From: Promethearchaeota archaeon
GTDB taxonomy: Archaea; Asgardarchaeota; Heimdallarchaeia; Hodarchaeales; Hodarchaeaceae
Direction: 5' to 3'
NCBI GenBank assembly: GCA_048938105.1
Contig: JBHLMN010000007.1
Span: 192,001 to 256,000, forward strand
DNA length: 64,000 nt
Each line of letters opens with the position of its first letter. Position 1 is the stretch's first letter. A program made the position numbers and the translations under genes. The notes under the pieces were generated by a model. The model was not told the DNA's origin and made no database searches. It saw only the letters and a program-made list of their open reading frames with translations. Below, one piece after another: positions 1-4,831 of the stretch.

Positions 1-345
1 CCAGACGGGCGAAAAGTAAAAGCTACTCTCCATTGGGTCTCAGCTGAACATGCAATTAAGGCAAAAGCACGTCTGTACGACAGACTTTTCATTAAAGAGA
101 ATCCTCTGGAAGATGCAGACTTTTCAAAAAGTTTAAATCCCAAATCATTAGAGAAGGTATCATGTTATGTGGAACCGAGTCTTCAGACCGCAAAACCAGG
201 GATGACGTATCAATTCGAACGTTTAGGATATTTTTGTGTCGATTCAGTGGATACAACACCCGAACAACTAGTTTTTAATCGCACGATAACTTTACGGGAT
301 CCTTGGGCCAAGATTAAGAGATCTCAAAAAGTAAAAACAACATGA
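1..345 (+). CDS. glnS: Glutaminyl-tRNA synthetase, C-terminal anticodon-binding part (5'-truncated by window)
   Basis: Not in the ORF track. Frame 1 reads PDGRKVKATLHWVSAEHA...RLYDRLF...NP...LNPKSL...VEPSL...YQFERLGYFCVD...LVFNRTITLRDPWAKI, matching the conserved GlnRS C-terminus (KVKGxxHWVS, RLYDRLF, QFERxGYF, FNRTVxLRDxW). TGA at 343-345. Confidence 0.93.
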   Translation, partial: PDGRKVKATLHWVSAEHAIKAKARLYDRLFIKENPLEDADFSKSLNPKSLEKVSCYVEPSLQTAKPGMTYQFERLGYFCVDSVDTTPEQLVFNRTITLRDPWAKIKRSQKVKTT

Positions 346-379
346 CACATTTCTTGACAAGAGAATAAAAAAGAAATGA

Positions 380-451
380 CAGCCCCGCCCAGAATCGAAC
401 TGGGGTTATCGGATTCAGAGTCCGAAGTGATAACCGCTACACCACGGGGCT
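380..451 (-). tRNA. tRNA-Gln(CTG)
   Basis: Minus strand AGCCCCGTGGTGTAGCGGTTATCACTTCGGACTCTGAATCCGATAACCCCAGTTCGATTCTGGGCGGGGCTG folds as a cloverleaf; anticodon arm TCGGA-CT-CTG-AA-TCCGA; CCA not encoded. Confidence 0.95.
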
Positions 452-502
452 TGTTTTGAATTTTTAAGTTTTTATATTTAAGTGAGAAAGAGAAGAAAGA
501 AG

Positions 503-609
503 CAGCCCCGCCCGGATTTGAACCGAGGTCGAGAGGGTCAAAGCCTCTTATGCTAGTCCACATTGCCTAATTGTGGATGATAACCACAATGTGTCTACAC
601 CACGGGGCT
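503..609 (-). tRNA. tRNA-Gln(TTG) with ~34-nt D-loop insertion (probable non-canonical intron, ~561-594)
   Basis: Acceptor stem AGCCCCG/CGGGGCT; anticodon arm AGAGG-CT-TTG-AC-CCTCT; T-loop GTTCAAAT; extra self-complementary sequence between G15 and the D-loop TGG. Confidence 0.88.
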
Positions 610-697
610 TAAGAATAGATATTCTCTCAGGTCTTTATCAAATTAATCTTCTTTTGAAAAATTTTATTGGATATTTTCTTTTATTAAAAACTAATAT

Positions 698-2182
698 CTA
701 TTTTGGAATTGAGAAATAAAATGTACTACCCTTCCCCTCTCCTTCTGATTTCACCCATATCATTCCCTGATGTAATTCTATAATTGACTTCGAAATATAT
801 AGACCTAATCCAAGACCTTGGCCATGAATCTTTGTATTTCCTTGTGGTTCAAACAGACTGAAAAGCTGATCAAATTTATCTGGATGTATCCCTATTCCTT
901 CATCTTTAACTGAGACAATATATTCATGTGGTTTGTTTCTTAACGTAACAATAATTTCTCCATCATTTGAAAATTTTACTGAATTTTCTATTAAATTTCG
1001 AAGTACCTGATCAATTCGATCCGCATCAACCATAACTTGGTCAGGTGCTTCATTACCCTCTTTCATAAATGTAATCTTTAAATTGTTCTTTTCTACATAT
1101 TTTGTTATATCATTTACAAAATTCTCTACTATTTCTTCCAAATTAGATTGCTTTTTATTGAGTTCGAATAAATTTCTTCTTATACGAGATAAATCAAAAC
1201 TTGCATCGAGGAGCTTTTCGATTCGATGATAATTTCTATTTATGGAGTCATATATTTTCTTCCGCTGTTGTTTAGTTAAATTTCGACCAGTTTCACCTTG
1301 TTGCAATAATTCTATATTTCCCCACATTATGGATAGTGGTGTACGTATTTCGTGAGAAACAAAATCAATAAATTGACTCTTTAGAACATCCAATTCTTTT
1401 AATTCCTCCATTTGTACTTCGATAATTTTCCATGCAATATCTCTTATATGTTCACGTGTTCTAAAGATAACTAAGATAGTAATGGTCAGGCCAACGGTAT
1501 AAGTAATACCTGCTATAATTAAGATCTCCACAGTCGACCCAGTGACCTTAATTAACTCACTAATCCCACCTAACAATCCTCCAAGTCCGAAGTATTTTAA
1601 ATACTGGCGTCTGATTAAAGTTGACATGGTTTTTGGAAAGAATATGTCAGTTAATGGCTTAGCAAAGAAAACTATGACTGTAAAGCCAATTAATAGTTCA
1701 GCTAACAGAAGAAAAGAAAAAAACCATATATCGGATAAAAATAACTGATATAGGGAGTCAAAAATCATACTTCCCATATCAAACATTAAATATCTTACTA
1801 TGGTAAAAAAGCCGAAAAATAAACAAACTCCTATAATTACTTTTGTTGTTAAGGTATGATAAGGATAATTAGTATCAACGACAACAAAAATACACAGAAA
1901 AACCAGGAATGTGCTAATTGAAGCAATTGTTAATATACTAACAATTGAGTTCAACACCTCAACACCCTCCTGATTTAGAAAAGAAATATAAAGAAAATAA
2001 GAAAAAGAATAACCAGTTATACCTCCATACATGCCTAATAGTGCTTTATTTTTCTGTGTACGAAGATCTTTACTATCAATGAGATAGAATAAGACGATAG
2101 AGAAGAATAATAAAGGAAGAATTGTATTCAATGCATAAATAAGCTCTAAAAATAGATTTGTGAACACCATAGAATTATCCAC
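698..2182 (-). CDS. Membrane sensor histidine kinase (multi-TM N-terminus, HisKA + HATPase_c)
   Basis: H-box FVSHEIRTPL, N-box NLIENSVKF, G1 DEGIGI, G2 GLGLGLYI; about 7 hydrophobic segments at the N-terminus. Confidence 0.9.
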   Translation of the reverse strand: MDNSMVFTNLFLELIYALNTILPLLFFSIVLFYLIDSKDLRTQKNKALLGMYGGITGYSFSYFLYISFLNQEGVEVLNSIVSILTIASISTFLVFLCIFVVVDTNYPYHTLTTKVIIGVCLFFGFFTIVRYLMFDMGSMIFDSLYQLFLSDIWFFSFLLLAELLIGFTVIVFFAKPLTDIFFPKTMSTLIRRQYLKYFGLGGLLGGISELIKVTGSTVEILIIAGITYTVGLTITILVIFRTREHIRDIAWKIIEVQMEELKELDVLKSQFIDFVSHEIRTPLSIMWGNIELLQQGETGRNLTKQQRKKIYDSINRNYHRIEKLLDASFDLSRIRRNLFELNKKQSNLEEIVENFVNDITKYVEKNNLKITFMKEGNEAPDQVMVDADRIDQVLRNLIENSVKFSNDGEIIVTLRNKPHEYIVSVKDEGIGIHPDKFDQLFSLFEPQGNTKIHGQGLGLGLYISKSIIELHQGMIWVKSEGEGKGSTFYFSIPK

Positions 2183-2412: not shown

Positions 2413-3636
2413 TTATGCTCCAAATTTATGAACTCTTCCAGCAATACCTAGCATTAGAGGAATTATTTGTTGGCCTATTAAATGACCTAATCCTCCTCTC
2501 ATGGTTGGCCGCTCACCGAATTCAGTTACTTGATCCGAACGAACACCCTCACCAGCTATTAGAACTGGTACTGGATCAGATGAATGGTCTCGCATTACAC
2601 AAGGAGTGCTATGATCACCTGTGATGCAAATGATCGTATCTGACAGTATCTCAAAAAAACGTTCAATTGCAATGTCTATCTCATCAATGAATTCCATTTT
2701 TTGAATGGGTTTGTTGTCATGGCCGAAATTATCTGTCCCCTTTACATGTAAAACCACAAATTGAGCTCTTTTAAACGAGTCCATGACTGCATTAACTTTA
2801 GAATTAAGGTCGGTTGGAACTCCTCCCGTACCTCTATGATCATTATTAATTCTCATACCACAAATAGAGGCAACTCCTTTATACAATCCACCACCAGCAA
2901 CACATTCAGAACTAAGACCAAATTTAGTTTGAAAGCTTTCTAAGTGAGGGGCTATACCTGCGCCTCTGACTAATAAATAGTTTGCAGGCAGCTTATTTTT
3001 ACTGATTCTCTTTTTATTTATCTCGAGAGATTCCATTATCTCCGAAGCTTCTTGAATAAACCGTTTTAATATCCGAGCTGTTTTCTCTGCTTCAGAACTC
3101 GTGGGAATAATGGGTTTTGGTTTTTTATTTTCAATTTTCGGATCATTACCAGTCACATGATGCGAAAGGCCAGGACCTCTTAAAACTAGAGCCGCACGAT
3201 GGTCTATTCCAACTTTAAATATTGTTTCTATATCATCTATTGTTATATTCTGAAGTGCTTGTTCAATTTCTTGGGTACCCTCAGAAATTCGACCAGCACG
3301 ACGATCAAGTATTATTCCATCCTCAATTGTAGCCATATTTGTTCGAAAAGCGATATCGCCTGGTCTCACTGGTACATCAGTTCCAGCAGCTTCAAAGGGC
3401 CCTCTTCCAGTATATACTTCATAAGGATCGTACCCGAAGAGTGCAAGGTGAGCAGTATCACTGCCCGGAGTGATACCTCTACCAATCGTATGTAAATGAC
3501 CAGTTATACCCATCTGGGCCAACCTGTCCATTGTGGGTGTTTTAGCGGCCTCCAAAGGTGTTTTATTACCTAATTCTGGTATTGGGCGATCGCCCACGCC
3601 ATCCATAATGAATAAGAGAAGTTTTCTTTCCTGCAT
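2413..3636 (-). CDS. apgM: 2,3-bisphosphoglycerate-independent phosphoglycerate mutase (archaeal type)
   Basis: DGVGDRP...[48 protein letters not shown]...HSSDPVP; start placed at MQERK. Confidence 0.93.
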
Positions 3637-3682
3637 ATCAATAATTCCTTTATTATAAATTCTGTAGAACCAAAGTCTAGTT

Positions 3683-4831
3683 TTAAGAAACAGGTTTCCA
3701 GAGGATCCCAAGTTTATCTGCTTTATTTCGAGCCAATGTCAATTCTTCATATGTAATGCCTCGGTTGATGTCTTTATACTTATCAGGATTCTTGCGAACC
3801 TTATGCATCGGCCTGTACTGACCCATGACATTAACCAAGGCCTTGGGAACATTGTTATTACACCATTCAAGGATAGGGTAGCTATCTGCTTCTATCCGAC
3901 CAGGCATTACTAGATGCCGAACTATCATTTCCCCAGAACCTTTATCATGAGCCATTTTTATGTTGCGAGTGATTACTGCCCAATAATTCGGGATTTTCGA
4001 CATTCGTTTGGCAAAATCATCATTGGCGTATTTTAGATCCGGTAACCAGAAATCCATAACTTCCAATAATAATTTCATTCCCTCAATACTTAGATACATA
4101 TTTGAATTCCAGAGCTGACAAATATTTGTTTCGAAGTATTGAAGAACATGGAGAATTACATGAAGGTTGGAGGTGGGATCTCCACCAACCCAATTTATAT
4201 TTCGAGCACCTTCCCTTGATAATGCTCCAGCAATAAGAGCAATTTGTTGAGGGGTTCGTTTGACACCATCACGAATTTCCCCACTTTCACGATCCCTCCA
4301 TTCTTGACTTATAGAATGATTTTGGCAGAAGACACATTTAAAGGTGCATCCTGAAAAAAAGATCGTCCCAGAGGGCACAAGCACAGTTTCCTCTCCCGTA
4401 TGTAAAAAAGCAGAACTGATAATTGCTTCTTTACCAACTTTACAAACACCAAGTTCTCCTGCTTCTCGATTTTTTTGACATCGTCGTTCACAAAAACAAC
4501 ATTCCTTAAGCATTTCATCAGCAATTTTAGTCTTTAAATCAAGAAAAGATGGGTTCACTGACTCTGGGACAACGCTCGAATTAGCTCCTTCATCGTATTC
4601 ACTTAGGAAGATATTGAATTCTGATGCTAATCTATCATGTTCACGCCAAAGCACTGGTAAATCAGTTTCTAAATCAATATCTATTGGTAATGCCTTTGTT
4701 AAGAGGTAACGTGCAATTTTCTCTTCATGAATTAGCTGATAATAGCGGTTAAGTCTATTGACAACTTCGGGGTTTTTCCAAACAGAGACTCTGTCAGGTC
4801 GTATTCGCCACATCTTTCTCAGAATATTCAA
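3683..4831 (-). CDS. Radical SAM protein, PflX/pyruvate-formate-lyase-activating-enzyme-like
   Basis: CTFKCVFCQN (CxxxCxxC), upstream CCFCERRC...C, HTGEE..LVPSGTIFFSGC, IVRHLVMPG, MGQYRP. Confidence 0.85.
   Translation of the reverse strand: MNILRKMWRIRPDRVSVWKNPEVVNRLNRYYQLIHEEKIARYLLTKALPIDIDLETDLPVLWREHDRLASEFNIFLSEYDEGANSSVVPESVNPSFLDLKTKIADEMLKECCFCERRCQKNREAGELGVCKVGKEAIISSAFLHTGEETVLVPSGTIFFSGCTFKCVFCQNHSISQEWRDRESGEIRDGVKRTPQQIALIAGALSREGARNINWVGGDPTSNLHVILHVLQYFETNICQLWNSNMYLSIEGMKLLLEVMDFWLPDLKYANDDFAKRMSKIPNYWAVITRNIKMAHDKGSGEMIVRHLVMPGRIEADSYPILEWCNNNVPKALVNVMGQYRPMHKVRKNPDKYKDINRGITYEELTLARNKADKLGILWKPVS

Follow-up and report, generated by a model that had tools for sequence, protein, structure and literature searches.

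Archaea are described in a 2022 review as lacking glutaminyl-tRNA synthetase (GlnRS) without exception, an absence that the review calls an anomaly (PMC9499178). In the archaeal route it describes, a non-discriminating glutamyl-tRNA synthetase (GluRS) acts together with GatDE, whose recognition features are tRNA-Gln's D-loop and its A1:U72 pair; the discriminator base of this tRNA is A73 in archaea, G73 in bacteria and U73 in eukaryotes (PMC9499178). According to one hypothesis, archaeal tRNA-Gln, with A1:U72 and A73, is incompatible with bacterial and eukaryotic GlnRS, and this has kept GlnRS out of archaea (PMC9499178). Here we describe a glnS gene and two adjoining tRNA-Gln genes at the start of a 64,000-nucleotide (nt) stretch of archaeal DNA, hereafter the window (contig JBHLMN010000007.1 of assembly GCA_048938105.1, positions 192,001 to 256,000; G000:C42:192001-256000 in our numbering). 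The encoded protein is already annotated in databases, and no paper analysing archaeal GlnRS or its tRNAs was found in the literature searchable here. A preprint states in one sentence that, in Hodarchaeales and Kariarchaeaceae, GlnRS has cox genes as neighbours (10.1101/2024.07.04.601786); the coxABC-GlnRS neighbourhood, as that sentence gives it, is inapplicable to this locus, as the genome contains no COX1 match.

The reading that we consider likely is that a transferred bacterial GlnRS and a retuned pair of linked tRNA-Gln genes stand beside native tRNA-Gln genes and a GatDE that were both kept, giving two parallel routes to Gln-tRNA. A bacterial glnS would have entered Heimdallarchaeia by horizontal transfer and been added beside GluRS, GatD and GatE, and a spare archaeal tRNA-Gln pair would have been retuned to G73 and A37 next to it. 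GlnRS is predicted to charge these linked tRNAs directly with glutamine, while the native tRNAs, with A73 and G37, would stay with the non-discriminating GluRS and GatDE; the two routes, possibly partly orthogonal, would then operate in one cell. Retuning of the tRNAs may have been a way past the incompatibility proposed to bar GlnRS from archaea. The locus is a natural counter-example to the statement that archaea lack GlnRS and suggests how the barrier was crossed, and because a single genome supplies the four tRNAs and three enzymes needed, the old incompatibility hypothesis can be put to a direct test. In a lineage close to the eukaryote ancestor, nature may here also provide an example of one aminoacyl-tRNA made along two parallel and possibly orthogonal routes. 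A comparable arrangement is the presence of two PylRS/tRNA-Pyl pairs in one archaeon, likewise with G73 and A73 tRNA sets for one amino acid (Zhang et al. 2022, via PMC9499178). As summarized in that review, the PylRS pairs differ in comprising two paralogous synthetases of measured orthogonality, with the discriminator base (G73 or A73) keeping the pairs apart, whereas the present system, as read from sequence alone, would combine one direct enzyme with a two-step route.

The 3' end of glnS occupies positions 1-345 of the window (plus strand), comprising the final 114 codons and a TGA stop in a frame that enters from the window edge. The whole gene (G000:C42:190627-192345, plus strand; L001:1405-3123) starts with ATG, has no internal stops and encodes a protein of 572 amino acids (aa), P0001. 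In Pfam searches the 114-residue fragment matched PF20974, the second anticodon-binding domain of Glu/Gln-tRNA synthetases (E = 4e-25); in NCBIfam it matched glnS (TIGR00440, 1e-29) and GlnRS/YqeY (NF011291, 7.5e-36), with archaeal gltX (TIGR00463) at only 1e-3. The complete P0001 scored 723.3 bits on the glnS equivalog TIGR00440, far over the curated cut-off of 425.8. Its Pfam domains are PF00749, PF03950 (4.6e-31) and PF20974 (6e-24), with no others, and include both beta-barrel anticodon-binding domains (PF03950 and PF20974); the catalytic domain starts at residue 33. The class I signatures are present as LHIGHAK (HIGH) and TVMSKR (MSK). A preliminary description of this DNA, made from the sequence alone, had noted a GlnRS C-terminus of the bacterial GlnS type followed about 35 nt away by two convergent tRNA-Gln genes (CTG and TTG), and had placed the host in a probable Asgard lineage; all three statements are borne out by the retrieved gene, the tRNA analysis and the taxonomic matches given below.

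Three other identities were considered for the enzyme and set aside. The NCBI product name, GlnRS/YqeY fusion (NF011291), is unfit, since P0001 has no YqeY domain by Pfam: it is 572 aa long against approximately 770 aa for GlnRS/YqeY, and the fragment matches profile positions 457-565 of 769, after which the gene stops. It is not a eukaryote-type GlnRS, as it lacks the N-terminal appended domain of approximately 200 aa and falls outside a eukaryote clade with a support of 99. An archaeal GluRS, the identity on which the preliminary description would have given way, does not fit either: P0001 scored 371.8 bits on TIGR00463, below its cut-off of 401.75, and GluRS sequences form a separate outgroup at a support of 100.

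Among described enzymes, E. coli GlnS (PDB 1GTR/1QTQ/1O0B) and 5BNZ share the three-domain architecture and the length of P0001; an alignment of 558 residues with E. coli GlnS gives 53% identity. The best matches among solved structures were bacterial, 5BNZ (697 bits) and E. coli (672), with human GlnRS at 472 and archaeal GluRS at 195. P0001 keeps the residues conserved in bacterial GlnRS: HIGH and MSK, those of the glutamine site and those that contact the anticodon. In 15 sampled Heimdall GlnRS sequences, HIGH, VMSKR, R30, Y211, C229 and Q255 (E. coli numbering throughout) are kept, as are R341, R402, R410 and Q517; only one or two sequences from two further families (f3 and f4, introduced below) depart from this, by single substitutions. 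We take R30, Y211, C229 and Q255 to be glutamine-site residues that separate GlnRS from GluRS, and R341, R402, R410 and Q517 to be anticodon contacts in E. coli GlnRS-tRNA structures. In the archaeal GluRS outgroup, position 229 is R and position 255 is F or I. The system differs from that of E. coli in its archaeal host and in its presumed substrates, where A1:U72 replaces U1:A72 and C3:G70 replaces G3:C70. It also differs from bacterial glnS in adjoining two dedicated tRNA genes; a tRNA-Gln gene lies within 2 kb of glnS at only 2 of 60 near-bacterial loci. Eukaryotic GlnRS (human PDB 4YE6, yeast 4H3S) has the catalytic core and anticodon-binding domains in common with P0001, at about 45% identity, and differs in its N-terminal appended domain and its position in a separate clade.

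P0001 is a real bacterial-type GlnRS and, judged by its sequence, looks functional. That it is instead a GlnRS-derived paralogue with a tRNA-modifying or regulatory role, not supplying Gln-tRNA for translation, is extremely improbable in our assessment. A complete GatDE route makes a GlnRS not obviously needed, which lends this idea some plausibility; yet the protein is full-length, keeps both anticodon-binding domains and all checked catalytic and anticodon-contact residues, scores far over the equivalog cut-off, and in each of the three families that have it, tRNA-Gln genes are found in physical linkage with its gene.

The spacer between the glnS stop and the first tRNA gene spans positions 346-379 (34 nt, from the sequence); 34 nt at 332-365 are missing in a related strain of another study, where a contig from run X4 joins 331 to 366. 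The linked tRNA-Gln(CUG) gene, convergent with glnS, lies at 380-451 (minus strand) and was called by ARAGORN, by Rfam (RF00005, 63.1 bits; gathering score 29) and by R1, a covariance model built on related tRNA-Gln genes (87.8 bits). It has A1:U72, G73 (base 380) and the anticodon loop CUCUGAA, with A37; CCA is not encoded. The linked tRNA-Gln(UUG) gene at 503-609 (minus strand) is interrupted by an intron and was recognized by orthologue alignment, by R1 (69.9 bits, E = 2e-16) and by a sequence pattern (G000:C42:192503-192523). It likewise has A1:U72, G73 (base 503) and A37, in the anticodon loop CUUUGAC, and both linked tRNAs have the acceptor strands AGCCCCG...CGGGGCU.

The genome contains four tRNA-Gln genes: besides the linked pair, it has a native CUG and UUG pair on two other contigs. 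The native tRNA-Gln(CUG) gene (G000:C11:135862-135968, plus strand; L174:101-207) carries a canonical 37/38 intron of 34 nt, and the native tRNA-Gln(UUG) gene (contig C18, minus strand; L175:132-236) a non-canonical intron of approximately 32 nt in the T-arm (T-loop or T-stem); both have G37 and A73. They were found by pattern searches and score 77.5 and 75.6 bits with the covariance model; blastn-short searches with the linked tRNAs as queries yielded no additional copies in the genome. The same four tRNA-Gln genes are present in G009, a closed genome of a relative. Linked and native genes differ in the discriminator (G73 versus A73), in position 37 (A37 versus G37) and in the D-loop, which is a longer GG(U/A)CCAU in the native pair and shorter or altered in the linked pair; the acceptor stem and A1:U72 are the same. 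G73 and A37 are part of the E. coli GlnRS identity set. Of the G73 and U1:A72 of bacterial tRNA-Gln, the linked tRNAs have G73, but their first pair is A1:U72, also a weak pair though in the opposite orientation. Relative to the archaeal tRNA-Gln identity set (PMC9499178), they have A1:U72 and lack A73.

Identity between a linked tRNA and its native counterpart is 81% for both isoacceptors, against 51-58% with the tRNA-Gln of near-bacterial metagenome-assembled genomes (MAGs), which start with UGGGG. Because of these identities, the linked genes are, by sequence, archaeal duplicates that were not transferred along with glnS; one of them also has an intron of archaeal type.

The co-occurrence of such pairs with glnS was examined in 300 Asgard genomes of 30 families, with GlnRS called at the TIGR00440 cut-off; f1 denotes the family of the window genome (19 genomes). 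We searched for a 21-nt pattern covering the T-arm and the acceptor 3' strand and ending in G73 or A73. The G73 pattern was found in 11/11 GlnRS-positive f1 genomes, mostly as two matches adjoining glnS, and in 0/7 GlnRS-negative ones. It was also found in a further f1 genome, G020, where the pair closes a contig of 1.6 kb, so that glnS would be expected past the edge. Outside f1, it occurred in 4 of 280 genomes. The pattern ending in A73 was present in 156 of the 300 genomes, from most families and including the GlnRS-positive f1 genomes, and all tRNA-Gln of GlnRS-negative genomes in f1, f2 and f7 have G37 and A73, which, with the longer D-loop, is also the pattern of the native pair. A BLAST search with the 72-nt linked tRNA gave no match in the f5 and f6 genomes searched. 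Across eight linked tRNA-Gln(CUG) orthologues, compensatory changes were seen at six base pairs, with 96% of cells paired, while G73 and the anticodon loop were invariant; reading of 8 linked CUG genes and 9 linked UUG genes showed no variation at G73 or A37. These data support the view that the linked G73/A37 tRNAs and GlnRS form a putative co-adapted module. The preliminary description had suggested such a module from the clustering, and it gains substance from the extra G73/A37 set beside glnS and the native A73/G37 genes on other contigs; it still holds as the most interesting aspect of the locus.

The other GlnRS-positive families present a different picture. In f3 and f4 the enzyme is approximately 650 aa long (L014:1480-3435, minus strand; L112-L121), with an N-terminal extension of approximately 85 aa, and over its first ~80 residues it can be aligned with the N-terminal end of archaeal GluRS from the same genome (29% identity over 82 residues, E = 1e-5), so that it looks like a chimeric enzyme. 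The f3/f4 enzymes resemble that of the window in belonging to the same acquired clade (monophyletic in the best maximum-likelihood (ML) tree), in having GatE alongside and in often having tRNA-Gln near glnS. They differ in that the window's enzyme lacks the extension and its linked tRNAs are changed instead, the f3/f4 tRNA-Gln having A73. In f4 genome G032, a UUG gene lies 104 nt from glnS; it has A37 and its intron is canonical. The two branches may have solved compatibility differently, by retuned tRNAs in f1 and by a borrowed GluRS N-domain in f3/f4. As a single case, another f4 tRNA-Gln(UUG) gene (L153, G032:C41:228195-228267) encodes CCA after a discriminator U, the eukaryotic base at this position (PMC9499178).

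Several observations weigh against the proposed co-adaptation. In the closed f3 genomes G027 and G037 there are just two tRNA-Gln genes, a tandem pair approximately 13 kb from glnS, and both have A73; f4 genomes have three, none with G73, and A73 is found in this family also in the one next to glnS. Apparently, then, G73 is not required by every Heimdall GlnRS. D235 and L136, which we take to be acceptor-stem contact residues of E. coli GlnRS, are replaced in f1, the former by T or S in all GlnRS sequences and the latter by S in 4 of 7, including that of the window. One of the two near-bacterial tRNA-Gln examined has G37, and A37 is thus not universal there. Some f1 genomes without GlnRS are incomplete, so the co-occurrence counts depend in part on MAGs that are 71-94% complete.

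Some of these points favour another account, in which the adjacent tRNAs are ordinary duplicates serving dosage or co-expression, G73 and A37 are drift, and GlnRS charges all four tRNA-Gln alike: the f3 and f4 enzymes live with A73-only tRNA-Gln, and a near-bacterial tRNA-Gln with G37 exists. We regard this account as unlikely. Drift is hard to reconcile with G73 and A37 staying invariant in every linked CUG and UUG gene read, although compensatory changes occur in the stems of these genes, with native copies in the same genomes keeping A73 and G37, and with a G73 pair that tracks glnS exactly inside f1. The f3/f4 enzymes, in turn, carry the extension of ~85 aa, so their tolerance of A73 need not apply to f1.

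The indirect route is retained in the genome. GluRS is encoded by a separate, intact gene on contig C49 (479.5 bits on TIGR00463), and gatE and gatD are adjacent and intact on contig C11 (549 and 482 bits); a profile search of the genome gave no GatB above its cut-off. Of 80 Heimdallarchaeia searched, 77 have gatE (74 above the cut-off), and these include all GlnRS-positive families. Because gatE is kept in all of them, GlnRS appears everywhere as an addition to the indirect route, not as its replacement, and the preliminary description, which had implied a stand-in for GatDE, does not hold in this respect. Compared with the archaeal route through non-discriminating GluRS and GatDE (PMC9499178), the genome has the route intact and native tRNA-Gln that keep A1:U72 and A73; it departs from a plain indirect route in the coexisting direct-route enzyme and in linked tRNAs that lack A73 and have a changed D-loop. 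Two further observations concern gatE. The f4 genomes (G036:C54, G032:C20 and others) have two GatE-like genes, one of them on the glnS contig, and in the closed f3 genomes G027 and G037 (L156, L163) a tRNA gene with anticodon GUG (His) adjoins gatE.

The similarity of P0001 points to a bacterial source. Its identity to the GlnRS of bacterial MAGs, which come from more than 10 phyla, is 62-66% (labelled Desulfobacterota, Planctomycetota, Nitrospirota, Chloroflexota, Bacillota, Omnitrophota and others), that to representatives with a long N-terminal extension 44-50%, and that to the GluRS of its own genome 33.7%. Eukaryotes were absent from its 120 best word-index matches. GlnRS above the cut-off was found in 11 of 19 f1, 21 of 29 f3 and 8 of 11 f4 genomes, all three families belonging to Heimdallarchaeia, and in 0 of 241 Asgard genomes of the 27 other families; the glnS reading frame is unbroken in 40/40 Asgard genomes whose match tops the cut-off. 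Two GlnRS sequences (P0029 and P0070) with 69-70% identity to P0001 bear the NCBI names of Thorarchaeota and Odinarchaeota MAGs; they may be mislabelled bins, since GlnRS in the survey is confined to the three Heimdallarchaeia families. A group of metagenomic GlnRS sequences (P0056, P0057, P0065-P0067 and others; 692-708 aa, 66-68% identity to P0001) carries an extra PF01588 domain (tRNA_bind/EMAP-like).

Phylogenetic trees were inferred from 114 near-full-length representatives at 50% identity, named bacterial loci, E. coli GlnS, the three Heimdall families and an Asgard GluRS outgroup, using FastTree (223 rows) and IQ-TREE under LG+C20+F+G4 with posterior mean site frequencies (PMSF; 85 rows). 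Eukaryote sequences were drawn from the 50%-identity representatives, and the N- and C-terminal extensions of 150 representatives were inferred from BLAST coordinates. In both trees, Heimdall GlnRS formed two fully supported groups, f1 and f3+f4. In the PMSF tree they fell within a shallow clade holding 16 named bacterial sequences, with 97 in the Shimodaira-Hasegawa-like approximate likelihood ratio test (SH-aLRT). The N-terminally extended sequences formed a separate clade (support 99) that was taken as the eukaryote clade, of which only two members, a plant GlnRS and a protist protein, have eukaryote names. In both trees, the GlnRS of Plasmodium inui (P0127, 865 aa) fell among bacterial-type GlnRS, outside the main eukaryote clade. 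In the best LG+F+G4 tree (log-likelihood, lnL, -71798.3), Heimdall GlnRS formed one clade and the outgroup attached on the eukaryote stem.

Approximately unbiased (AU) tests were applied to alternatives that differ from the best tree by a single subtree-pruning-and-regrafting move; an earlier tree gave the same pattern. Placing eukaryotes as sister to Heimdall (delta lnL 86.5, p = 3.5e-6), Heimdall as sister to eukaryotes (delta lnL 132.6, p = 2e-5) or Heimdall on the outgroup stem (delta lnL 131.4, p = 2e-5) was rejected. Attachment of the outgroup to the Heimdall stem was not rejected (delta lnL 12.3, p = 0.12), a further point on the opposing side. Since the tests reject three of these moves and leave this one, the unrooted position of Heimdall GlnRS near a shallow bacterial clade and far from eukaryotes is firm, and the root is weakly fixed.

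The best reading of these data is that glnS was acquired, not inherited, through an old transfer from bacteria into Heimdallarchaeia. The transfer would have taken place long ago, because glnS has the base composition of its host (GC 37.3%, with 25.5% at third codon positions, GC3; gatE, GC 34% and GC3 23%) and occurs in three families. The preliminary description had left the choice between acquired and retained; acquisition is favoured by the clade shared with bacterial GlnRS, and the inherited option is not. The opposite scenario, with GlnRS ancient in Heimdallarchaeia, the root of the family on the Heimdall branch and the archaeal enzyme the source, or a near-source relic, of bacterial and eukaryotic GlnRS, seems very unlikely to us. 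It draws on the outgroup that can be re-grafted on the Heimdall stem without rejection (delta lnL 7.2, p = 0.235, and the value above) and on the single Heimdall clade of the best ML tree. That same tree nevertheless roots on the eukaryote stem, the sister placements with eukaryotes and the placement at the outgroup stem are rejected, and even under the alternative root eukaryotes are the group most distant from Heimdall; only 3 of 30 Asgard families have GlnRS, and the identity of P0001 to bacterial GlnRS far exceeds that to the host GluRS. Still less credence is given to the fuller version, in which GlnRS would have arisen or first become fixed in Heimdall-group archaea and spread to bacteria and then to eukaryotes, and would not be a eukaryotic invention; it was kept as a candidate because the Heimdall root is the sole origin topology that the AU tests left unrejected (p = 0.12-0.24). 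With the archaeal enzyme having come from bacteria, the locus has no bearing on the origin of eukaryotic GlnRS, and the relevance to GlnRS origin suggested in the preliminary description falls with the rejected eukaryote-sister placements.

The host genome is a MAG of 5.85 Mb with an estimated completeness of 99% and contamination of 7.25%. The closest named relatives are MAGs under the names Candidatus Hodarchaeota (90% identity), Candidatus Heimdallarchaeota (83%; a closed 4.9-Mb chromosome) and Promethearchaeota. On the basis of these nearest relatives, the host is a Hodarchaeales archaeon (Heimdallarchaeia, Asgard).

Given the estimated contamination, and given that unitigs of the likely source run break at 527-561, an assembly or binning artefact that fused a bacterial glnS to archaeal DNA was also considered; its probability is negligible. 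The break is the fork between strains with and without an intron, not the glnS-tRNA junction: in the likely source run the only fork lies at 527-561, where other strains continue with an intronless UUG tRNA. When public contigs were compared over window positions 1-1200, the junction was spanned by a contig from a second sample of the same study (178-525, zero differences) and by a contig of a related strain from another study (286-561). The host contig is 269 kb long, with a GC content of 35.3% against 35.1% for the genome. The order glnS, tRNA-Gln(CUG), tRNA-Gln(UUG) is repeated in f1 relatives, including the closed chromosome, and the histidine kinase gene downstream is syntenic in four of them. 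The chimeric contig that the preliminary description had named as a possible source of error is thus not what is seen.

The intron of the linked tRNA-Gln(UUG) gene is non-canonical and lies in the D-loop (562-595, minus strand; 34 nt, after tRNA position 14 or 15), and boundaries at 561-594 fit equally well. Bases 503-609 align end to end with six intronless orthologues as tRNA-Gln(UUG), and in the R1 match a 41-nt stretch replaces 7 D-loop model positions. Because of the 34-nt insertion, the gene was not called by ARAGORN or by Rfam at the gathering threshold. Among orthologues of the linked UUG gene, two relatives have the D-loop intron and six lack it. Contigs from other samples continue uninterrupted across the insertion; those of runs X1, X3 and X4 match the window up to position 561 (555 for X3) and then run into TACACCACGGGGCT, the intronless allele. 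The intron is accordingly polymorphic, with intronless strains in three public runs (L019:3260-3400, L022 and L023 compared). In relative L019 (3260-3400), an insertion of approximately 30 nt past the anticodon stem is found instead of the D-loop intron. The minimum-energy fold of the tRNA-Gln(UUG) precursor is unremarkable (z = -1.5).

Run with introns allowed, ARAGORN found 35 tRNA genes in the whole genome, with no tRNA-Glu, Asn, His, Cys or Phe among the calls. Many tRNA genes of this genome probably carry non-canonical introns, like its tRNA-Gln genes. The native tRNA-Gln(CUG) gene was miscalled as tRNA-Pyl(CUA) with wrong intron bounds, and the sole tRNA-Pyl on the list is probably an artefact.

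Beyond the tRNA pair, the window continues with three genes on the minus strand. From its translation only, the gene at 698-2182 encodes a membrane histidine kinase, the one whose synteny in four relatives is noted above. The translation of 2413-3711 resembles cofactor-independent phosphoglycerate mutase, and that of 3683-4831 contains a CxxxCxxC motif and resembles a radical-SAM enzyme.

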